Part shown: piece after piece, positions 2,491-15,225 of the stretch | How positions within the stretch are numbered: position 1 is the stretch's first letter | Layout of the letters: every line of letters begins with the position of its first letter | DNA from: a virus | Taxonomy: Duplodnaviria > Heunggongvirae > Uroviricota > Caudoviricetes | Virus record (IMG/VR): IMGVR_UViG_2872185964_000004 | Length of the DNA stretch: 17,968 nt | Strand: one strand, 5' to 3' | Notes under the pieces: generated by a model | What the model saw: only the letters and a program-made list of their open reading frames with translations | What the model was told of the DNA's origin: nothing | Database searches by the model: none | Made by a program: the position numbers and the translations under genes

Positions 2491-4152
2491 TTACACCCCG
2501 CTAAATTCTTCCAGTTTCTGGCGGTGGCTGTCGCTTATATCAAAAGCAAAATCCTCATGCTCTGCCTGGAATGTACCAAACGCCATCAGCGCCGCCACGC
2601 TCGGGTCTATCTTGTTCGGTGATTTTTTCTTGTTCGGCTTGATATTGGCGTTCGCGTCACTCTGCATCACGACGTTACTCATCGACCAGGACAACACCGG
2701 ATCGCCACGATGCACAATCACCCTGCGGTTAACAAAAACTTCGAACGATTTCGCCGCCGGACTGAATCTGAGGTAGGTTTGCGGGAACGGCTCCACCTCA
2801 AAACCTGCCCCCTGTAATTGCGTTCTGAGATGCGTGGCGTTCCACGTATCAAAGCCCACCAGCCTGATATTAAATTTCTCCGCGTCCTGCATGATGTCAT
2901 CTCTGATCCGGTCGTAATCAATGCAGTCGCCAGGCGTTGTGCGTATCCAGCCTGCTTTAGCCCACTGACGATAGATGGCGCGGTTTTTATTGGCGGGGTT
3001 CTGTAGCTGGAACTCCGGCAGATAATGACGGGAAACCAGCATAATGGTTTTACCTACCGGAAAGGCATAGCACACGCTGGAAATATCGCTTGTGGATGAT
3101 AAATCCAGCCCCGCGTAACACTCCTGGCCGTGTAAATCTTCCTCCGTGAACGTTCCGGCACACTCAGCCCATGCGCCGTTACCCATCCACGGGGTAGTCC
3201 CCTGACACCAGATATTAAATCGCTTTGTCATCATCTCCACCCACTGCGACGGAATACCCCGCGCTTTCTGGATGGTTGAGGCCAGTTTTTCACGATCCAC
3301 GGAAACATCAATATTAGGGTTCGCTTTTATCCACATCGCCGGATCATCAACCTCGTTTTCGTCGTCCAGTTCGTAAATCAGTACAAAAATTGAATCGTTG
3401 ACCTCTTCGCCGTCCAGGATCTGGCAGCAATAATCATAGTGCTGCTTACAGGCTGAAACGACGTTACTGCCTGATGTGGTAATGGCAAATAACAGCCCTT
3501 CGGGACGTGCGCCCATCCCCAGCTCAAGCGCGGAATAAACGCCGTTATCGGGGTGTAGGTGGTATTCGTCCACGATGGAAAGGCTGGGGTTTGTTCCCTC
3601 GATGGTTGCCGCTTTTGCTGCCAGCGGCTTTAACAGGCTGTTGCTTTTCGGGTGTATCACCTTATGCGCCTGAATATTCACCCGCCTGCGTAACGGTCGG
3701 GATAAAAGGCACATCTGACGCGCATCATCAAAGACGATCCGCGCCTGGTCACGGCTCACCGCTGCGGTGTAAATATCCTGCTGACCGTTCTCCATAATCA
3801 GAAACCAGTTAGCCAGAATCGCGGCGGTCGTGGATTTCGCATTTTTGCGCGGCACTTCGATAAAGGCGCTCGTGTATTTGCGCCGTCCGGTGGCCTTAAC
3901 CTTAAAGCCGAGGATGCACGCAAAGGCGAACTGCTGCCACGGCTCCAGCTCAATGGGTCTGCCACGCATCGGTCCTTTTACGTGCGGGCACACCCTGGAA
4001 AAGGCAATAAACCGCTCCACAACCTCACGATCGAACGTGTAAAGGGGGCTTTTAAGATCCGAAAAGTACCGTTTAACGGCCTGTTTCAGCCGTTTACAGG
4101 CCGGAATTTTGCCCGTTTTTACGTCTTCTGCGTACTTATTCCAGGCGGTCAA
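2491..4152 (-). CDS. terL: Terminase large subunit (Terminase_1-type ATPase/nuclease)
   Basis: 553-aa ORF; Walker A-like VPRKNAKST; typical TerL length. Apparent TTG start at 4152 with AAGAGGA Shine-Dalgarno, overlapping the TerS 3' end by 17 nt. Confidence 0.9.
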   Translation of the reverse strand: MTAWNKYAEDVKTGKIPACKRLKQAVKRYFSDLKSPLYTFDREVVERFIAFSRVCPHVKGPMRGRPIELEPWQQFAFACILGFKVKATGRRKYTSAFIEVPRKNAKSTTAAILANWFLIMENGQQDIYTAAVSRDQARIVFDDARQMCLLSRPLRRRVNIQAHKVIHPKSNSLLKPLAAKAATIEGTNPSLSIVDEYHLHPDNGVYSALELGMGARPEGLLFAITTSGSNVVSACKQHYDYCCQILDGEEVNDSIFVLIYELDDENEVDDPAMWIKANPNIDVSVDREKLASTIQKARGIPSQWVEMMTKRFNIWCQGTTPWMGNGAWAECAGTFTEEDLHGQECYAGLDLSSTSDISSVCYAFPVGKTIMLVSRHYLPEFQLQNPANKNRAIYRQWAKAGWIRTTPGDCIDYDRIRDDIMQDAEKFNIRLVGFDTWNATHLRTQLQGAGFEVEPFPQTYLRFSPAAKSFEVFVNRRVIVHRGDPVLSWSMSNVVMQSDANANIKPNKKKSPNKIDPSVAALMAFGTFQAEHEDFAFDISDSHRQKLEEFSGV

Positions 4153-4492
4153 GCTCGTCCTCTTCTTCTGTTTCCGGTGGATTTTTACGGCGGCTTACCG
4201 GGTCAAAACCGAGCAAGGAGGCCATTTTTATCATCACTCTTTCAGCGTCGGATTTTGCGCTTAATGCGGGGTTTCTGCTCTCGCCGCCCTGACTGTTAAC
4301 AATGCTGAACCCGCGCGCCGCAAGGTCTGCGACGGCTTTGCGGTATATCGAGTAATTGACGCAATACAGTTCCAGATTGCTCCAGTCGGCGGGGGTCAGG
4401 TCTCCCCGTTCCGCAAGCTGCCGCGATTTTTCCCGCCACTGCTTCACGGCGATGTCATCCAGGTAGGCGGGGGCTTTCGGTGGTCTTGCCAT
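4136..4492 (-). CDS. terS: Terminase small subunit (P27-family-like)
   Basis: 118-aa ORF directly upstream of and overlapping terL; N-terminal basic region and acidic C-terminal tail (ETEEEDELDRLE) typical of small terminases; ATG at 4492. Confidence 0.78.
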   Translation of the reverse strand: MARPPKAPAYLDDIAVKQWREKSRQLAERGDLTPADWSNLELYCVNYSIYRKAVADLAARGFSIVNSQGGESRNPALSAKSDAERVMIKMASLLGFDPVSRRKNPPETEEEDELDRLE

Positions 4493-4613
4493 GCTTATTT
4501 TTCGTCAGATTATTTTTCAAAAAATTCCCGTGCATAAAAATTTGAGGAGGCGTTCGGTGCCCGGCGGGGTCGGGTTTGTCCTGAAAACGCCCCCACCCCG
4601 TCATACAGCCTCA

Positions 4614-7671: not shown

Positions 7672-8829
7672 TTAATCGTCGTCCTGTGGCAGTTCCAGAA
7701 TCTTGATCGCGTTCGAATCCACCACGCCACCGCCTAAATATTTCTGCGCGAAAATTTTGATGAAGCCCGGCTCTGTGAGGTTGTCCGGTCTGGTGCGAAC
7801 ACCTGTTTCGTGATCAACAATGTAGTAACCGCGTTTGAAGTCACCCAGGGCAATAACGTTATCCGGCATAAACTCCAGATATTCGACCGGAAGGCCCAGC
7901 AACGTATCAGGATCACCCGCCTGTAAACGGTCACGCCAGATGTAATCACCGTTCGCGTTCTTCACCTTCTGGAGTTTTGCCGCCGTCGTGGAGTTAACCA
8001 CCCAGACCGCGTTTTTGCGGTATTTTTTACGTAATGCAAATTTCAGGTCGATCAGCGGGTCCGCAGATGTCCACGCCAGAGATTCGGAAGGTTTAATTAC
8101 CTGCAACGTACCAAAATCACGCTCTTTGTCGTTCTTCTCTGCACGGGGTACGGATAAAAAGCCTTTTGCTTTTTTGTCACCGTCGCCCACAACCAGATCG
8201 CTTTCTTCGGTTTCCGTGAAGGTGTCGCCAATCTCGCCCGTCAGCCATGAAAGGATGTCCACATCGGAAAAATCCACAATTTCCTGCGTGGTGCGCGGGT
8301 ACGCATAGACCGGATACAGCTTAATGCTCACCTCGTTAATCTGCGGGGTGCTGGTCTGTTCGCGTGCCTTACCCTCTTCACCGTGGTTAACGGTCGCACC
8401 GCCAGCGGAAACAAGCTGCTTAAACTCGTTGCTGCTGATTTTCTTCACGGTACAGATGCGGCGCATGGTGGATTCATCCGTCAGCATTCGCATGATTTCG
8501 GTGTTCAGTTCGGGGATAACGGTATAACCACCATCAGCGGGAACGCCTGTACTCAATGCGCGGGTTTCACCTGTCAGAATGTAGTGACGTAGTTCGGCGG
8601 GGTCAGTGGTCTGGCTGTTTTTGCCTGGTTTACTGCGCTCTTCGTCAGCAACGGCCTCAAGGCGGGAGATGTCTTTATCGAGTGATTCAGCTTTAGCGCG
8701 TAATTCGTCAAATTTTGCGCCCTCAGCATCGTTAAGGCTGCGGTTTTCTTTTTCCGCGTTCTCCAGCATGTCGCGCATCTGATTTTTAATGGCGGTTTTC
8801 TGCTGGCGTAATTCGATTATTCTCGGCAT
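7672..8829 (-). CDS. Major capsid protein (HK97 fold) with N-terminal coiled-coil delta/scaffold-like domain
   Basis: 385 aa from the ATG at 8829 (MPRIIELRQQKTAIKNQMRDM...); charged helical N-terminal ~100 aa followed by a capsid-like body; the track ORF begins 16 codons earlier at a non-ATG start. Confidence 0.88.
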   Translation of the reverse strand: MPRIIELRQQKTAIKNQMRDMLENAEKENRSLNDAEGAKFDELRAKAESLDKDISRLEAVADEERSKPGKNSQTTDPAELRHYILTGETRALSTGVPADGGYTVIPELNTEIMRMLTDESTMRRICTVKKISSNEFKQLVSAGGATVNHGEEGKAREQTSTPQINEVSIKLYPVYAYPRTTQEIVDFSDVDILSWLTGEIGDTFTETEESDLVVGDGDKKAKGFLSVPRAEKNDKERDFGTLQVIKPSESLAWTSADPLIDLKFALRKKYRKNAVWVVNSTTAAKLQKVKNANGDYIWRDRLQAGDPDTLLGLPVEYLEFMPDNVIALGDFKRGYYIVDHETGVRTRPDNLTEPGFIKIFAQKYLGGGVVDSNAIKILELPQDDD

Positions 8830-9040
8830 AAAAAAAGTCCTGAAGTTAAGTAAGGAACTCCAGGACGCGGCAAACACTCAACCGTTTTTCATAAGGAAAT
8901 CAGCAATCGCACCGATCGTTTTCCCGCCTGGTAATGAATATTGGCGAGCACATTAACAGGCGGGAAAGTGGCCCCAGCGTCCTGGCACCACGGGCGAGAA
9001 TAATCATGATTCAGTTCGGGTAAAATATGCCGATCCGGTC

Positions 9041-9070
9041 AGCGAACAACGTGGAACAACCACGAACAAA
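9041..9070 (+). repeat. Three 10-bp-phased GAACAA repeats (site B) in the promoter region of the head operon
   Basis: GAACAA at 9044-9049, 9054-9059 and 9064-9069; 15-mer AACAACGTGGAACAA at 9045-9059 is identical to site A; lies between the terminator and the capsid gene. Confidence 0.55.
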
Positions 9071-9401: not shown

Positions 9402-9812
9402 TCAGAACGGAATATCATCACCGTAAGGGTCATCGCCTCCCGCTGGTGGCTGATTACCCTGTGTGCCTGTGGTCTTGCGTCGGCTCCCACCAGGACGTGC
9501 CGCACGGGCACTGATTACGCTGTCTGCAATAACCTGATAACCCTGCCGCGTTTCCCCGTTCTGTCCGGTCCACTGGCTGACCTGCATCGTGCCGGATACG
9601 CTGGCAACGTCGCCTTTTTGATGTTTAGCCAGGAAGTCGGCCTGCTTACCAAATGCGATGACCGATAGCCATAACGTCGCCTGTCCATCCTGTGCCTGGC
9701 TGCATGGCAGCGATACCGCCATACGCGCCAGCGTCATCGGTGTACCCTTGCTGGTCTGTTTTACCTGCGGGTCGTCCACCAGCCGCCCGTAAGCTGCAAT
9801 TTGTGCTGTCAT
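9402..9812 (-). CDS. ssb: Single-stranded DNA-binding protein
   Basis: 136 aa; OB-fold-like N-terminus, Gly/Pro/Gln-rich linker and the diagnostic acidic C-terminal tail ...DDPYGDDIPF; ATG at 9812 with GAGGTGG Shine-Dalgarno. Confidence 0.85.
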   Translation of the reverse strand: MTAQIAAYGRLVDDPQVKQTSKGTPMTLARMAVSLPCSQAQDGQATLWLSVIAFGKQADFLAKHQKGDVASVSGTMQVSQWTGQNGETRQGYQVIADSVISARAARPGGSRRKTTGTQGNQPPAGGDDPYGDDIPF

Positions 9813-9821
9813 ATTGCCACC

Positions 9822-10112
9822 TCAGTGAAGCGATCCGGCGTTGTTCTTTTTCATCTCTTCCATCATTTTTTCAGTGAGCATTACGCACTGAAAACCCATG
9901 TTTTTGATGTCTACGGGTTTCATGCCTTTGTCAGTGGATATCACAGGCAGAATATCCTGATACACATCGCGGTCAGGGTAACTAAGCACACAAAGCGCCC
10001 ATGATGCCACGGGTGAGGATCCTTCGTCTGTTTCAACCCACCAGCCTGGTGTAGCTGCGCTTATTTGCTGAATCGTGATCCGTCCGTTGTGCTTGTAAAG
10101 TTTTTTCACCAA
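9822..10112 (-). CDS. Hypothetical protein (~96 aa)
   Basis: ORF with a non-ATG (TTG/GTG) start near 10109-10112; no motifs recognised. A separate 31-codon ATG ORF overlaps the upstream stop in another frame. Confidence 0.4.
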   Translation of the reverse strand: MVKKLYKHNGRITIQQISAATPGWWVETDEGSSPVASWALCVLSYPDRDVYQDILPVISTDKGMKPVDIKNMGFQCVMLTEKMMEEMKKNNAGSLH

Positions 10113-10124
10113 ATTTTGGTTCGC

Positions 10125-10376
10125 TCATGATTCCAACTCTCCGGTTTTAACGTTGATTGTTGTTACCTGTTCCGCTTCGGCAATCTCCCGTTCTGTCAGC
10201 GTGGCAAAGTTTGCCGCCGCCGTGGTCATGAATGCGCTTATCAGGTCGGGATGTTCCTTCGCGTATCCTTCCCGCGTGTGGCGGTCTATCATTCTGATTG
10301 CCACCTTTAAGGTGTGCTCAGTCATGTCTAACGCTTTATATTTTGGCTCTGTTCTGTCTCTGCGTTTTTGGGTCAT
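10125..10376 (-). CDS. Hypothetical protein (83 aa)
   Basis: ATG at 10376 with GAGAGG Shine-Dalgarno; the track ORF begins upstream inside the iteron region. Confidence 0.45.
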   Translation of the reverse strand: MTQKRRDRTEPKYKALDMTEHTLKVAIRMIDRHTREGYAKEHPDLISAFMTTAAANFATLTEREIAEAEQVTTINVKTGELES

Positions 10377-10388
10377 TTCTCGCAACCT

Positions 10389-10576
10389 CTCACTTTTTCG
10401 CCTCACTTTTTCAAGCGTCTCACTTCGTCGCAGTTGGGATTTTCGGTTTTTCTATGTGTGTGTTTCATAAGTATTTTTTTACCCCTCACTTTTGAGGATG
10501 TATACAGGTCGAAAAGTGAGGGGAGCGGGCTAATTTTGGCCCTCTTTCTACCCCCTCGCTTTTGCTCCTCACTTTT
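10389..10576. repeat. Iteron cluster (CTCACTTTT) with an embedded 12-bp inverted repeat; putative replication origin
   Basis: CTCACTTTT or variants at 10389-10397, 10402-10410, 10419-10426, 10485-10493, 10555-10563, 10568-10576. Inverted pair CCCCTCACTTTT (10482-10493) / AAAAGTGAGGGG (10512-10523) with an 18-bp spacer. Sits immediately 3' of the RepA-like ATPase gene. Confidence 0.5.
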
Positions 10577-11558
10577 ATAGCGGCGCTACATCATCCCCAT
10601 CGATACGAATAACCCCATCTTTTTCCAGCTTGTACAGCCAGCGCCGGAAGTTTTTCATTTCATACCCCAGCTTTTTCATGTCATCACGTAACAGCTGGAT
10701 CGTGCACTTGTCGCCGTTCTGTGTGCGTGAACGGATGCACCCCCATAGCGCGGTATGGTTTTCCGTCTTGTTCCCTGCCTCCTCTATGCGCTCCAGTTCA
10801 ACAGGAGGGCGCGGATCATCCACCACCACCAGCGACGTGATTAATTCACCGTCAGCGTCGGTAAAAAGCTCCACCACGCGTAAGTCATATGCGGCTTCTT
10901 TGAGTTCCTCCGCGTCCTTCATTTTGGTGCATGAGATAACCAGCGCTTCGCTTCCTGCGTCCTCCCTGCGTATCCGGTATTCAGCATCCAGCGAAGCACG
11001 AAATGCACTGGAGCCGCGCGCGCCTTTCGTCTCATCCTTGCCGGAATGGTGAACCACCAGCACCGTGGCCCCTGTGCGTCGTTTCAGTTCGTCACAACCA
11101 CGGATAAACGCCCCCATATCACGGGAATCATTTTCATCATTCCCACCAAAGCAACGCGCCAGCGTATCCAGAATAATCATGCGTACAGGTTTACCCGTTT
11201 CCCGCTCCACCTGACGGGCAGCGATAACCATTTCATCAACATCAAGCGGGGCAGCCGGAAAGATGGGGCGGTTTACCAGATACAGATTTTTCACCTGCTC
11301 ATCGTGCACAACCTCCCAGGCTTTTACACGACGCGGAACACCTATACCGCCTTCACCAACCACATAGAGAACCGCACCATGTGCAACCCTGCGGCCTCCC
11401 CACTGGCGACCAGTGGCAACATGGCACGCCCACGATCCGGCAAGGAATGATTTATAGGACCCGCTAGCCCCGTATATGCTGCATAGCGATACCGCCGGAA
11501 TAATCCCCTTAACCACGTAATCCAGTTGCGTGTCGTATCCGGTAGATCCAACGCTCAT
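10575..11558 (-). CDS. AAA_25 / RepA-like RecA-fold ATPase (replication helicase-like protein)
   Basis: P-loop GASGSYKS, Walker B IILDTL, and the HHSGK...RGSSAF motif characteristic of RepA/DnaB-like ATPases. Start placed at ATG 11558, which overlaps the upstream stop (ATGA at 11555-11558); an in-frame ATG at 11660 is the alternative. Confidence 0.75.
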   Translation of the reverse strand: MSVGSTGYDTQLDYVVKGIIPAVSLCSIYGASGSYKSFLAGSWACHVATGRQWGGRRVAHGAVLYVVGEGGIGVPRRVKAWEVVHDEQVKNLYLVNRPIFPAAPLDVDEMVIAARQVERETGKPVRMIILDTLARCFGGNDENDSRDMGAFIRGCDELKRRTGATVLVVHHSGKDETKGARGSSAFRASLDAEYRIRREDAGSEALVISCTKMKDAEELKEAAYDLRVVELFTDADGELITSLVVVDDPRPPVELERIEEAGNKTENHTALWGCIRSRTQNGDKCTIQLLRDDMKKLGYEMKNFRRWLYKLEKDGVIRIDGDDVAPL

Positions 11559-11974
11559 CGGTAGCGTGGTTTTTCGCTGGTGGTTTTTTTCTTCCACCGG
11601 CTCTTTCCCGCGCACCCGTTCCAGGTATTCGCGCCAGTTCTCCCGCATATGGCTGTGCATCCCTTCGGGTAATAATTCGCATCAGTTACACCCGCCGCCG
11701 CCAGCTTGTGCGCAATGGCATTAATATTTGATGGCCTGATGTGGCCTGCCTTGTACAGCCGGACACAATAGCGCCCCTCGTCGATGATTCTCAGGTCTGC
11801 CAGTTCATCCAGTTGATCATCAGCCAGCACAACGGGAGGCACATTATCGCCAGCCAGTCGCCCGTCCTGTTCCTGCCACTGTTTCGCATGTGCCCAGGCA
11901 TCACTACCCGCAAAAATAATGACTTCGGTCATCTTGTCGTAAGGCTGTTTTTTTAAGTTCGGTGCGCTTTTCAT
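11555..11974 (-). CDS. Hypothetical protein (139 aa), co-translated with the ATPase
   Basis: ATG at 11974 overlapping the upstream stop (ATGA at 11971-11974); no confident motif. Confidence 0.5.
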   Translation of the reverse strand: MKSAPNLKKQPYDKMTEVIIFAGSDAWAHAKQWQEQDGRLAGDNVPPVVLADDQLDELADLRIIDEGRYCVRLYKAGHIRPSNINAIAHKLAAAGVTDANYYPKGCTAICGRTGANTWNGCAGKSRWKKKTTSEKPRYR

Positions 11975-12270
11975 TTCTTGCCCCTGAATCCGTTAATCAT
12001 GGTTTTCAGCTTCTGGATGTTTGCCCGTGCCCTGGCGTTGCTGGTGGGCACGTTATGCGGCGCGGTCTGTACCAGAGAAAAATCACGCCGGAACTGATAA
12101 ACAGACATCACGCAATCATATTCGTAACCTTCACGGCGGTAGGTTACACGCCGTTCTTCCACGCCCTTAATCATTACCGTGCCGCCGTACTGGTCGCGGT
12201 AAATATCACCGCGCGTAAATTTAGGGTGAGTGTTGCCACTGGCAGTTAAGCCAGAATATTTAAGTTTCAT
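11971..12270 (-). CDS. Hypothetical protein (99 aa)
   Basis: ATG at 12270 with GGAG upstream; basic protein. Confidence 0.5.
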   Translation of the reverse strand: MKLKYSGLTASGNTHPKFTRGDIYRDQYGGTVMIKGVEERRVTYRREGYEYDCVMSVYQFRRDFSLVQTAPHNVPTSNARARANIQKLKTMINGFRGKK

Positions 12271-12275
12271 TATTT

Positions 12276-12509
12276 TTATTCTCCGGTGTGCTGTTCTTTA
12301 TATCTGTCGTGCAATAGATCTATTTCTTGCAGTTCCATTATTACAGGCTCAAGAAGCGTTATTAATGCCGTGGCAATTCTTGATTTTTGTTCGTCGCGTT
12401 CATTGTCGCCAAGTGTTTCAAGCCATATGCGCAATATTTCCAGCATGTTTTCACTGTGAGAAAGTGCAAGAAATGCGCGGTCTATTGTTTCGTGGTAAAT
12501 ATCACGCAT
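12276..12509 (-). CDS. Hypothetical protein (77 aa), first gene of the replication operon
   Basis: ATG at 12509 with GAGGA Shine-Dalgarno; the IS1 composite is inserted 76 bp upstream of this start codon. Confidence 0.5.
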   Translation of the reverse strand: MRDIYHETIDRAFLALSHSENMLEILRIWLETLGDNERDEQKSRIATALITLLEPVIMELQEIDLLHDRYKEQHTGE

Positions 12510-12576
12510 GGCTTACATCCTCAGGAAATTTTCTTCTGTAACGCGCCTCTGCCACATATTCCGCATAATCGGCGGC

Positions 12577-12585
12577 GATATTCAG
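12577..12585. repeat. 9-bp target-site duplication GATATTCAG (left copy)
   Basis: Identical 9-mer directly abuts the outer IS1 ends at 12577-12585 and 14098-14106. Confidence 0.85.
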
Positions 12586-13329
12586 GGTGATGCTGCCAAC
12601 TTACTGATTTAGTGTATGATGGTGTTTTTGAGGTGCTCCAGTGGCTTCTGTTTCTATCAGCTGTCCCTCCTGTTCAGCTACTGACGGGGTGGTGCGTAAC
12701 GGCAAAAGCACTGCCGGACATCAGCGCTATCTCTGCTCTCACTGCCGTAAAACATGGCAACTGCAGTTCACTTACACCGCTTCTCAACCCGGTACGCACC
12801 AGAAAATTATTGATATGGCCATGAATGGCGTTGGATGCCGGGCAACTGCACGCATTATGGGCGTTAGCCTCAACACGATTTTACGTCACTTAAAAAACTC
12901 AGGCCGCAGTCGGTAACCTCGCGCATACAGCCGGGCAGTGACGTCATCGTCTGCGCGGAAATGGACGAACAGTGGGGATACGTCGGGGCTAAATCGCGCC
13001 AGCGCTGGCTGTTTTACGCGTATGACAGGCTCCGGAAGACGGTTGTTGCGCACGTATTCGGTGAACGCACTATGGCGACGCTGGGGCGTCTTATGAGCTT
13101 GCTGTCACCCTTTGACGTGGTGATATGGATGACGGATGGCTGGCCACTGTATGAATCCCGCCTGAAGGGAAAGCTGCACGTAATCAGCAAGCGATATACG
13201 CAGCGAATTGAGCGGCATAACCTGAATCTGAGGCAGCACCTGGCACGGCTGGGACGGAAGTCGCTGTCGTTCTCAAAATCGGTGGAGCTGCATGACAAAG
13301 TCATCGGGCATTATCTGAACATAAAACAC
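12586..13329 (+). mobile_element. IS1 copy 1 (744 bp, lacks the right terminal inverted repeat)
   Basis: Begins with the IS1 left inverted repeat GGTGATGCTGCCAACTTACTGAT; contains insA, the A6C frameshift motif (12892-12898) and the insB frame; ends at ...AACATAAAACAC and is directly abutted by copy 2. Confidence 0.93.
12641..12916 (+). CDS. insA: IS1 InsA (copy 1)
   Basis: 91-aa product [22 protein letters not shown]...[11 protein letters not shown] start. Confidence 0.93.
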
Positions 13330-13356
13330 GGTAATGCTGCCAACTTACTGATTTAG
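12868..13356 (+). CDS. insB: IS1 insB reading frame (copy 1), expressed as the InsAB' transposase by -1 frameshift
   Basis: insB frame with transposase motifs. An in-frame TAG at 12865-12867 lies upstream of the frameshift site, so the fusion is unaffected. The C-terminus is altered (...[12 protein letters not shown]) because the frame runs into copy 2. Confidence 0.8.
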
Positions 13357-13384
13357 TGTATGATGGTGATTTTAAGGTGCTTGC

Positions 13385-13660
13385 GTGGCTTCCATTTCCA
13401 TCAGATGTCCTTCCTGCTCCGCTACTGAAGGCGTGGTGCGTAACGGCAAAAGCACTGCCGGACATCAGCGCTATCTCTGCTCTCATTGCCGTAAAACATG
13501 GCAACTACAGTTCACTTACACCGCCTCTCAGCCCGGTACGCACCAGAAAATCATTGATATGGCCATGAATGGCGTCGGATGTCGCGCCAGTGCACGCATT
13601 ATGGGCGTTGGCCTCAACACGGTTTTACGTCACTTAAAAAACTCAGGCCGCAGTCGGTAA
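13385..13660 (+). CDS. insA: IS1 InsA (copy 2)
   Basis: 91-aa product [22 protein letters not shown]...; A6C frameshift motif at 13636-13642. Confidence 0.93.
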
Positions 13661-14082
13661 CCTCGCGCATACAACCGGGCAGTGATGTGATTGTCTGCGC
13701 TGAAATGGACGAACAGTGGGGCTACGTCGGTGCTAAATCACGTCAGCGCTGGCTGTTTTACGCGTATGACAGGATACGGAGGAGGGTTGTGGCGCACGTC
13801 TTCGGTGAACGCACTCTGGCCACACTGGAGCGTCTTCTGAGCCTGCTGTCGGCCTTTGAGGTCGTGGTATGGATGACGGATGGCTGGCCGCTGTATGAAT
13901 CACGCCTGAAGGGAAAGCTGCACGTTATCAGCAAGCGTTACACTCAGCGCATTGAGCGACATAATCTGAATCTGAGACAACATCTGGCAAGGCTGGGACG
14001 GAAGTCACTGTCGTTCTCAAAATCGGTGGAGCTGCATGACAAGGTCATCGGGCATTATCTGAACATAAAACACTATCAGTAA
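13579..14082 (+). CDS. insB: IS1 InsB (copy 2)
   Basis: 167-aa ORF ending ...HYLNIKHYQ, the canonical InsB C-terminus. Confidence 0.9.
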
Positions 14083-14097
14083 GTTGGAGTCATTACC

Positions 14098-14106
14098 GAT
14101 ATTCAG
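14098..14106. repeat. 9-bp target-site duplication GATATTCAG (right copy)
   Basis: Matches 12577-12585 exactly. Confidence 0.85.
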
Positions 14107-14247
14107 TACATCAAGCCCGTTGATTTATATTCTCTCGTGGAAAGTAAGAAAAAAGCCGCTCTAATAAGTTCTGGCATTGACGAAAGCGCACCAGCCGCAT
14201 CATCAGGAACGCCGGAAAATTCCTGTTTCAGGGAATTAAAACGATCA

Positions 14248-14613
14248 TCACGCATGTTTACCCCCCTGAATGACCTGATAACCGCAACTGGTCAGCAACT
14301 CGATAAATTCCGGCAGTGTGCCGAAACAGCAATCATCACGCAGCCGTTCGCAGGATACCTCGACGCCGTTTTCGTAGTGACTCACCATACATCCGGTAAA
14401 ATGCAGATCATCATCGTGATGGCTCGTTGACGGCTTAATCAGTCGCGCACGTTCCGCCAGTTCTAGCAATGCTTCAACGCTTCCGGCAATTGCACCATCC
14501 GGCAGGTGATAATTACGCACTATGCGCCCGTTCTCCACATTGACCAGCAACTGCCCGGTAAATTTCTCGTCAAACTGAATGCTGTTAAGGTCAGAAATTG
14601 ACAGGTTATGCAT
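14248..14613 (-). CDS. Hypothetical protein C (121 aa), third gene of a small three-gene operon
   Basis: ATG at 14613 with AGGAGG Shine-Dalgarno, 2 nt after the stop of gene B. Weak, unverified resemblance to CbeA/YfjZ-type antitoxins (LVNVENGRIVRNYHLPDGA; ...SCGYQV). Confidence 0.6.
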   Translation of the reverse strand: MHNLSISDLNSIQFDEKFTGQLLVNVENGRIVRNYHLPDGAIAGSVEALLELAERARLIKPSTSHHDDDLHFTGCMVSHYENGVEVSCERLRDDCCFGTLPEFIELLTSCGYQVIQGGKHA

Positions 14614-14830
14614 GGTGCACCTCCTGCACATCAGCCATGATAATTTTTCCGGCCTTATCCAGTGCCTGATCGGCTTTTAGCTGCACAAATGCTAAATAAT
14701 GGAAGATGCATTCTGATTCTCTGGCTGCGTGTTTATGCGCCCTGTCAGCAATAACAGAAATATCAATCAGCGCATGCATTAGCGTTATGATGGCTTCGGC
14801 GGCTGCGTCCGGACGGGTGTTATTGCACAT
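14606..14830 (-). CDS. Hypothetical protein B (74 aa)
   Basis: ATG at 14830 with AGGAGG Shine-Dalgarno; overlaps the gene A 3' end by 11 nt. Confidence 0.6.
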   Translation of the reverse strand: MCNNTRPDAAAEAIITLMHALIDISVIADRAHKHAARESECIFHYLAFVQLKADQALDKAGKIIMADVQEVHHA

Positions 14831-15026
14831 GGCACACCTCCTGACGAATACGGGCAGCGAATACCATCACGCAGCCAGCCGGGGATTGCTGGCGTGCTTC
14901 CTGTTCGCTGGTGGCCTCGATGGTAATCACGCGCGGTTGTGCCGTGCTCAGGGCGATAAAACGCCAGATGTATTTATTCAGGTCGTGCGAGTCCCGCCCT
15001 TGCGGGTGTGTGGTATGATTTCTCAT
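14820..15026 (-). CDS. Hypothetical protein A (68 aa), first gene of the leftward operon
   Basis: ATG at 15026 with GAGG Shine-Dalgarno. This is the only credible part of the 333-aa track ORF 14820-15821, whose remainder crosses the operator region and is antisense to the RHH gene. Confidence 0.55.
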   Translation of the reverse strand: MRNHTTHPQGRDSHDLNKYIWRFIALSTAQPRVITIEATSEQEARQQSPAGCVMVFAARIRQEVCHVQ

Positions 15027-15123
15027 AGCTGCCTCGATACTTTCGCTATCGTTGGTGGTTAGAAGCCCGGTTAGTGTTAGCGCACTGCCGGGTTTCGTCG
15101 TTTCTGCACCTTGCGCCAACAAG

Positions 15124-15175
15124 GTGTTGAACACCAATTTAAACCCAGGTGTTAAACACGTCAAGTGTTGAACAC
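15124..15175. promoter_or_regulatory. Three palindromic operator-like sites GTGTT(G/A)AACAC in a divergent promoter region
   Basis: GTGTTGAACAC 15124-15134, GTGTTAAACAC 15149-15159, GTGTTGAACAC 15165-15175. A candidate sigma70 promoter for the RHH gene (-35 TTGAAC 15168-15173, 17-bp spacer, -10 CATACT 15191-15196) overlaps the third site. Confidence 0.6.
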
Positions 15176-15225
15176 TTATTTTTTTTCCTGCATACTGCAT
15201 TTGTTTTTTATGAGGGGTACACCAC

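Follow-up and report, generated by a model that had tools for sequence, protein, structure and literature searches.

A probable RepA-dependent replication origin in a capsid-forming PICI satellite of Escherichia coli, with iterons whose core base covaries with a winged-helix residue of RepA

A repeat cluster of about 190 nt (10388-10576) is very probably the RepA-dependent replication origin of a cf-PICI satellite. It lies in the window, by which we mean the whole 17,968-nt stretch of DNA that was analysed, directly beside the gene for RepA. The original prediction had proposed an origin made of iterons beside the gene for its initiator, and four independent lines of evidence now speak for it: a layout shared with relatives, covariation between the repeats and RepA, the equivalent slot in the island EcCICFT073, and a circular record of a related element. 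The comparison of relatives further indicated that one residue of the RepA winged helix, Asn337 in this element, tracks one base of the repeat core.

Results

The island and its genes

By its gene content, which matches that of capsid-forming PICI (cf-PICI) satellites, the window is such a satellite, integrated in the E. coli chromosome between phoQ and roxA and of the kind whose prototype is EcCIEDL933 (bioRxiv 10.1101/2022.09.08.507074). The window begins in phoQ, and the subsequent genes are all on the minus strand. In addition to those listed in Table 1, they include HNH, head-tail connector (adaptor), portal, protease and PerC genes and two small genes, and, beyond the RepA gene toward the integrase, DUF4222 and several small genes. 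The island content also includes an Icd-like gene, and tail genes are absent. An island in E. coli FORC_042, located between phoQ and roxA, is 99% identical, has the same annotation, and is likewise without tail or lysis genes; that annotation contains the genes by which PICIs are recognised (integrase, rep and an alpA-type regulator), with a small HTH regulator as the putative alpA-type gene. In RepA-type and P4-alpha-type PICIs alike, the origin slot is bounded downstream by the 83-aa gene that lies next to the cluster here. These islands are common: among 5,426 complete E. coli genomes, 1,487 match the 2-kb region around the cluster.

Table 1. Coordinates of genes and repeat features in the 17,968-nt window
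Feature	Position	Strand	Remarks
TerL	2491-4152	-	
terS	4136-4492	-	
Major capsid	7672-8877	-	
SSB	9402-9812	-	3' of 83-aa gene
83-aa conserved gene, phrog_1231	10125-10376	-	directly downstream of the putative origin
Iteron 7	10388-10397	-	AAAAGTGAGa; likely Shine-Dalgarno of next gene in its purine run
Iteron 6	10401-10410	-	AAAAGTGAGG
Iteron 5	10418-10427	-	cGAAGTGAGa, degenerate
AT-rich stretch	10430-10483	.	65-80% A+T in 20-nt windows; candidate DNA-unwinding region
Iteron 4	10484-10493	-	AAAAGTGAGG; right arm of inverted pair
Inverted-pair spacer	10494-10511	.	palindrome GTATAC at 10500-10505; counterpart of the TATA(T/C)A centre of relatives
Iteron 3	10512-10521	+	inverted; left arm of pair on gene strand
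Iteron 2	10554-10563	-	AAAAGcGAGG, degenerate
Iteron 1	10567-10576	-	AAAAGTGAGG; overlaps 2 bases of RepA stop
RepA winged-helix coding region	10578-10793	-	residues ~290-361 of the 361-aa ORF
RepA C-terminal 361-aa ORF	10575-11660	-	AAA_25 RecA-fold ATPase and predicted C-terminal winged helix
RepA N-terminal 139-aa fragment	11555-11974	-	out of frame past 1-nt deletion
Tyrosine integrase	16739-17968	-	

Several other features of the island were noted. The interval between RepA and the integrase (11975-16738) is about 2 kb longer than its FORC_042 counterpart and is probably accessory cargo; it includes a 333-aa ORF (14820-15821) without a Pfam match. Just past the integrase stop (16640-16712) are six RACAAC/GAACAA units in 10-bp phase, with weaker ACACAA repeats at about 16420-16455; upstream of the capsid operon (9040-9070), three GAACAA-type copies point the other way. 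The GAACAA arrays, which the original prediction had named as the rival location for an origin, look like phased sites bound by a regulator, perhaps of the AlpA type, or by the arm domain of the integrase.

A cluster of seven iterons beside the RepA gene

The cluster fills the gap between the RepA gene and the next gene, ending at the ribosome binding site and ATG (10376) of the latter. Its unit, read on the gene (minus) strand, is AAAAGTGAGG, about 10 nt long. The exact 9-mer CTCACTTTT starts at 10389, 10402, 10485 and 10568 on the plus strand and at 10512 on the minus strand; these five copies compare with an expected 0.14 in 200 dinucleotide-preserving shuffles, in none of which (0/200) were five or more seen. 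All of the exact copies fall within 188 nt and none is found elsewhere in the window, and degenerate copies at 10419 (CTCACTTcg) and 10555 (CTCgCTTTT) complete the set. The AAGTGAG heptamer is similarly confined, with 6/6 occurrences in the 17,968-nt window inside 10389-10574, and a second cluster is therefore absent from the window. The starts of iterons 1 and 4 are 83 nt apart, as are those of iterons 4 and 6.

The features on which the original prediction had been built were recovered in this analysis. It had counted at least six direct repeats, and we found seven AAAAGTGAGG-type copies in 10388-10576, six in one orientation and one inverted. The predicted 12-bp inverted pair with its 18-bp spacer is present, with arms at 10482-10493 and 10512-10523 that are 12/12 complementary and 18 nt apart; as DNA, this pair has a hairpin energy of -11.5 kcal/mol (z = -5.0). 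The overlap of an iteron with the ATPase stop codon was confirmed as two bases shared between 10567-10576 and the TAA at 10577-10575, and the placement of the cluster just 3' of an AAA_25 ATPase gene agrees with the match of the ORF to Pfam AAA_25 (E = 1.6e-43).

Scans of 10370-10590 detected neither a DnaA box (allowing up to 2 mismatches) nor an IHF consensus, and a sigma-70 promoter scan of 10000-11000 detected no promoter-like site. Iteron 7 (GTGAGAGG) also makes up the likely, purine-rich Shine-Dalgarno region of the next gene, 11 nt from its ATG, and in relatives too the outermost iterons double as gene signals, for example in L086 (...GGTGAGGAATGACC). Between iteron 2 and the inverted pair is a small GGGC-N8-GCCC hairpin (10527-10542), a weak plus-strand match and the only one in the terminator scan. 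Other small inverted repeats often occupy the equivalent place in relatives, such as GGATA...TATCC in Pectobacterium loci.

RepA is a helicase-type protein with a predicted winged helix

Sequence and fold comparisons place RepA among helicases. The only solved structure matched by sequence was RSF1010 RepA (1g8y, E = 0.005), and fold matches included RadA, Rad51 and a DnaB-type replicative helicase (PDB 2vye). Matches among PHROGs were to primase-helicases, and the N-terminal 130 aa of intact RepA matched a primase PHROG. Relatives of RepA in Xenorhabdus carry Toprim_3; in E. coli alleles the N-terminus is a primase-related remnant only.

RepA residues 290-361 form a winged helix in the AF2 model, and N337 is the N-cap residue of its helix 3. 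In this region pLDDT was 73-92, and the model has helices at H300-314, H321-330 and H338-347 and a hairpin at 351-360; residues 338-347 are the recognition helix, and the Asn337 codon is at 10650-10652. The model was confident only for this segment and for parts of the ATPase. When the C-terminal model was searched in isolation, the best, though weak, fold matches included MarR, SelB, IdeR, IclR and the MCM4 WH. With the full 361-aa model as query, only RecA-fold cores were matched, the ATPase part being dominant and of low confidence (pLDDT 58).

In this copy of the island RepA is interrupted. Pairwise alignment with the intact 466-aa allele of FORC_042 (WP_104951208) indicated that one C has been lost from a CCCC run near 11669 (gene position 305). 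A single NCBI genome contig carries the exact 139-aa product, and the 90% cluster of that product, with 5 members, covers about 20 contigs in all; the frameshift therefore reads as a rare allele or a homopolymer sequencing error. The putative origin is intact in this copy and the initiator probably defective unless RepA is supplied in trans, so that the island would probably depend on RepA from elsewhere or be unable to replicate.

The layout is conserved among divergent RepA loci

The cluster was compared with 80 RepA loci from Enterobacterales species genomes, to which E. coli, Salmonella and metagenome alleles and one Klebsiella record were added. About 60 of some 88 RepA relatives across the Enterobacterales have the same layout directly 3' of the RepA stop, and the RepA proteins of these layout-sharing relatives are only 50-70% identical. 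In nearly all loci the repeats begin at or beside the RepA stop codon, and the common order is two to three direct repeats, the inverted pair, an AT-rich stretch, and then two to four direct repeats. Within 342 nt that span the stop and the sequence beyond it, the class-specific pentamer of each locus occurs at 18.2/kb, compared to 1.15/kb in the rest of the loci, a 16-fold difference.

With iteron positions counted from the right arm of the inverted pair (= 0), geometry was almost constant across 62 loci. The left direct iterons of relatives are at about -95/-84, -72 and -62 (-83 and -70 in this window), the inverted arm is at -29 (-31 in the E. coli/Salmonella group and in this window), and the right direct iterons are at +60/66, +82/87 and +98/105 (+66, +83 and +96 in this window). 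Measured from core to core, the inverted pair has a spacer of 24 nt in 52 loci; in the E. coli/Salmonella group the distance is 26 nt, and the centre of the spacer is TATA(T/C)A-like in every case.

Clusters in a few relatives (L085, L089, L079 and L070) are truncated, hybrid or unrecognisable. In L085, which has a His-type RepA, 2274-2500 holds the left GTGGGG set only, followed by unrelated DNA and GTGAGG-type remnants. In L089, which is Asn-type, 2313-2720 holds mostly GTGAG iterons along with two to three GTGGGG copies, one of them an arm of the inverted pair. To judge by their repeats, the L085 and L089 clusters are hybrid or decaying origins. A tandem arrangement was seen in L003 (Xenorhabdus beddingii, 3584-4020), where an Asn-type RepA is followed by a complete GTGAGG module and then by an orphan GTGGGG module, at whose start a piece of the 3' end of a repA gene survives (AATGAGGATTAA). 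The L003 locus itself encodes no RepA of the His or Lys type. Its second module may derive from the origin of a different satellite and may serve in trans.

A related element from Klebsiella pneumoniae, pKp_Goe_795-4 (CP018459.1; L092), is available as a circular record of 16,971 nt. It encodes capsid, adaptor, TerS/TerL, integrase and a Ser-type RepA, which is followed by GTGCGGC iterons in the same layout, and no recognisable replication gene besides RepA was found in it. The element is a cf-PICI-like satellite, probably in its excised, episomal form. It was deposited as a circular non-mobilizable plasmid, and one of its genes, 3.4 kb long, has the annotation tail tape measure.

One residue of RepA tracks one base of the repeat core

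The repeats share the core GTG-N-GG, in which N varies between loci and can be A, G or C. We aligned the C-terminal 120 aa of RepA and calculated the mutual information of each column with iteron class. The top column was 114, which corresponds to Asn337, the residue just before F-x-R-W-L. Loci with Asn at this position have A as the core base (26 loci, consensus aaaaaGTGAGGA), those with His or Lys have G (12 loci, consensus aaaGTGGGgA, and 31 loci, consensus AaGTGGGGGA, respectively), and those with Ser have C (7 loci, consensus tAaGTGCGGCA). The pairing holds in 76 of 77 classifiable loci, the one weak exception being L079, which lacks a recognisable origin. The Klebsiella circular element is an additional Ser/GTGCGGC case.

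Predictions for seven alleles, written down before their DNA was looked up, were right by majority base in 7/7, counting among them the truncated or hybrid cluster of L085 and the mixed cluster of L089 (six A to two or three G). The association recurs across the phylogeny, with at least 10 changes of residue class on a helicase-core tree from which the winged helix was left out, and at least 8 on a winged-helix tree in which the focal residue was masked. Pairs of opposite class can have winged helices that are up to 93% identical, as in L086 (Asn, GTGAGG x9) versus L088 (His, GTGGGG x12). Because the winged helix and the iterons adjoin on the DNA, some of the independent switches may be block transfers of the linked module, not separate co-mutations; the residue-base pairing is maintained whether by block transfer or by co-mutation.

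Because the core base tracks the recognition-helix residue, covariation marks the repeats as the cognate DNA sites of the adjacent RepA, and within them it matches Asn337 to base 4 of the GTG-A-GG core. Pairing of Asn with adenine, and of Lys or His with guanine, follows the usual hydrogen-bonding preferences of these residues. The observed pairings fit those preferences, and we infer a direct contact between N337 and the base. Covariation of this kind establishes cognate binding, not initiation.

Discussion

Support for an origin, and other readings of the repeats

The site has the organisation of a PICI origin. Such origins, according to Fillol-Salom et al. 2018 (PMC6092414), lie 3' of rep and are defined by two iteron sets flanking an AT-rich region. 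Here the site is immediately 3' of the initiator gene, iteron 1 overlapping the RepA stop, and the AT-rich stretch (10430-10483) has iterons to both sides, at 10554-10576 and 10484-10521 toward RepA and at 10388-10427 toward the next gene. The covariation indicates in addition that the iterons are cognate to the adjacent Rep, and in both cases the island supplies its own initiator, a Rep of the helicase type. For EcCICFT073, which has a different rep allele, that paper describes a pri-rep-ori fragment that drives replication experimentally, and a rep-ori fragment that keeps a temperature-sensitive plasmid only when rep and ori are both intact (PMC6092414).

The repeats could instead serve as a RepA operator only, for autoregulation or for control of the 83-aa gene, SSB and PerC, in which case the origin would be elsewhere or replication would be driven by the helper phage. 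We regard this as improbable. The position of the outer repeats is suggestive of it, as the last overlaps a Shine-Dalgarno 11 nt from an ATG and the first overlaps the RepA stop, and the covariation shows binding rather than initiation. However, an operator needs neither two iteron sets, nor a fixed inverted pair round a TATA core, nor an AT-rich block, and it is an origin-like geometry that has been conserved over 50% protein divergence. The region 10000-11000 also offers no promoter-like site, other iteron clusters are absent from the window, and the equivalent slot of EcCICFT073 is required for replication of the cloned fragment (PMC6092414). A regulatory side-effect may exist alongside origin function.

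Two further readings concern parts of the cluster or a different process, and both are less probable still. In one, the inverted repeat would act as a transcription terminator, or as an RNA hairpin, ahead of the downstream operon and the other repeats would be incidental; we consider this very unlikely. Read-through RNA would indeed fold a 12-bp hairpin, and the enclosing 86-nt segment has a folding energy of -25.8 kcal/mol (z = -4.3), but UAAAAAAAU rather than a U-tract comes after the hairpin on the gene strand, and the inverted pair was not called by the terminator scan. Its arms, moreover, copy a unit that recurs five more times, and in relatives the arm sequence varies with the RepA residue, which RNA structure alone would not require. 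The pair folds well as RNA or DNA but, lacking a U-tract, was rejected as a terminator. The other reading takes the cluster for a packaging signal (cos or pac) of the island's own TerS/TerL/HNH machinery. The terminase that cf-PICIs encode does package the DNA of its own island specifically (bioRxiv 10.1101/2022.09.08.507074), and a private packaging site must therefore be located somewhere in the island. That it should be this cluster is scarcely credible, since the repeats track the RepA residue and not the terminase, the rep-plus-iteron cassette is swapped for a P4-alpha-type cassette in PICIs that have no packaging genes, and terS is about 6 kb away.

Comparison with known replicons

The closest comparison is with PICIs that share the backbone of this island, in which DUF4222, rep, ori, the 83-aa gene, SSB and PerC follow one another as they do in the EcCICFT073 type. 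An EcCICFT073-type island of E. coli ABU 83972 (L091) differs in having as its rep a 604-aa 'DNA primase family' protein with GGTGAACAG iterons, whereas the element described here has a 466-aa AAA_25 RepA with a predicted winged helix, GTGAGG iterons, and an inverted pair at fixed spacing round a TATA core. In L091, GGTGAACAG / CTGTTCACC repeats in both orientations lie between rep and the 83-aa gene (4190-4520). We take the GGTGAACAG repeats to be close to the P4 type I iteron. Because the same backbone slot holds a different rep together with different iterons, the two are exchanged as one cassette at a fixed position between PICI lineages, and it is this position that the present cluster takes up.

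P4 alpha combines, in one polypeptide, a helicase and a C-terminal winged-helix domain that binds the origin, where it recognises repeats of 8-10 nt. This element resembles P4 and its ori/crr in that a helicase with a C-terminal winged helix would read short repeats present in both orientations. The P4 alpha helicase belongs to the D5/SF3 type, and P4 also requires crr, a second cis site at a distance of several kb. In this element, unlike in P4, the helicase has an AAA_25 RecA fold and not an SF3 domain with primase, and the window has one cluster and no second, distant iteron site. PMC6092414 likewise draws the comparison with P4.

Iteron plasmids such as pPS10, RK2, R6K and F also place initiator sites beside an AT-rich element and the initiator gene, and in them initiator-iteron specificity likewise defines compatibility. 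Plasmids of the Rep_3 type have iterons of 17-22 bp and a WH1-WH2 Rep that recruits host DnaB through DnaA boxes. In contrast, the units described here are about 10 nt, the initiator is itself an AAA_25 helicase, and a DnaA box was not found in 10370-10590, and on these three grounds a Rep_3-type origin was ruled out. RSF1010 (IncQ) RepA belongs to the same Pfam family, AAA_25. The iterons of RSF1010 are bound by a separate protein, RepC, whereas the helicase of this element is modelled with a winged-helix DNA-binding domain of its own. Replication origins of SaPIs have reportedly been treated by Ubeda et al. in 2007.

A possible course of initiation

If the cluster is the origin, initiation might, by analogy, proceed as follows. 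After induction and excision, the winged helices of RepA would bind the flanking direct iterons and the head-to-head pair, and the pair would place two RepA assemblies facing each other over the GTATAC/TATA spacer. The DNA would open at the spacer and the adjacent AT-rich stretch, and RepA would load itself, encircling the strands, as the replicative helicase. The island's own SSB, encoded two genes downstream, would coat the single strands, and primase activity would come from the N-terminal domain in Toprim-bearing relatives, or from the host. Because the outer iterons overlap the RepA stop and the ribosome binding site of the next gene, operon transcription would run through the origin. Occupancy by RepA may damp the downstream genes, and a coupling of replication to operon expression is speculative.

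Significance

PICI-type origins are a known kind, and specialists would expect one at this position. The new content is the fixed geometry of the inverted pair, the three iteron classes, and the correspondence of one residue to one base. None of these three (the specificity code, the iteron classes or the inverted-pair geometry) was found in the searchable literature, a statement that excepts the figures of the 2018 paper, and a literature search with the iteron strings returned nothing relevant. In the supplements of PMC6092414 the EDL933 island is listed, without iteron sequences, and the founding paper on cf-PICIs (bioRxiv 10.1101/2022.09.08.507074) maps no origin.

A broader proposal, to which we give slightly less than even weight, is that a single N-cap residue of RepA (Asn, His/Lys or Ser) sets a single core base (GTG-A/G/C-GG), and that many switches between these states have produced orthogonal replicon classes whose satellites can coexist in one cell. 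If there is such a code, the winged helix of this element would prefer AAAAGTGAGG over AAAAGTGGGG and AAGTGCGGC, and the substitutions N337H/K/S would shift the preference from A to G or C. Hybrid and tandem origins like those of L003, L085 and L089 would then let the RepA of another satellite replicate an island in trans.

The analysis places the probable origin of satellites that are widespread in E. coli and the Enterobacterales, and the repeat layout provides a reliable marker for annotating the replication module of these islands. N337 and base 4 of GTGAGG together offer a concrete, testable determinant of specificity between initiator and origin, which could explain the compatibility of co-resident satellites and could serve to build orthogonal small replicons.
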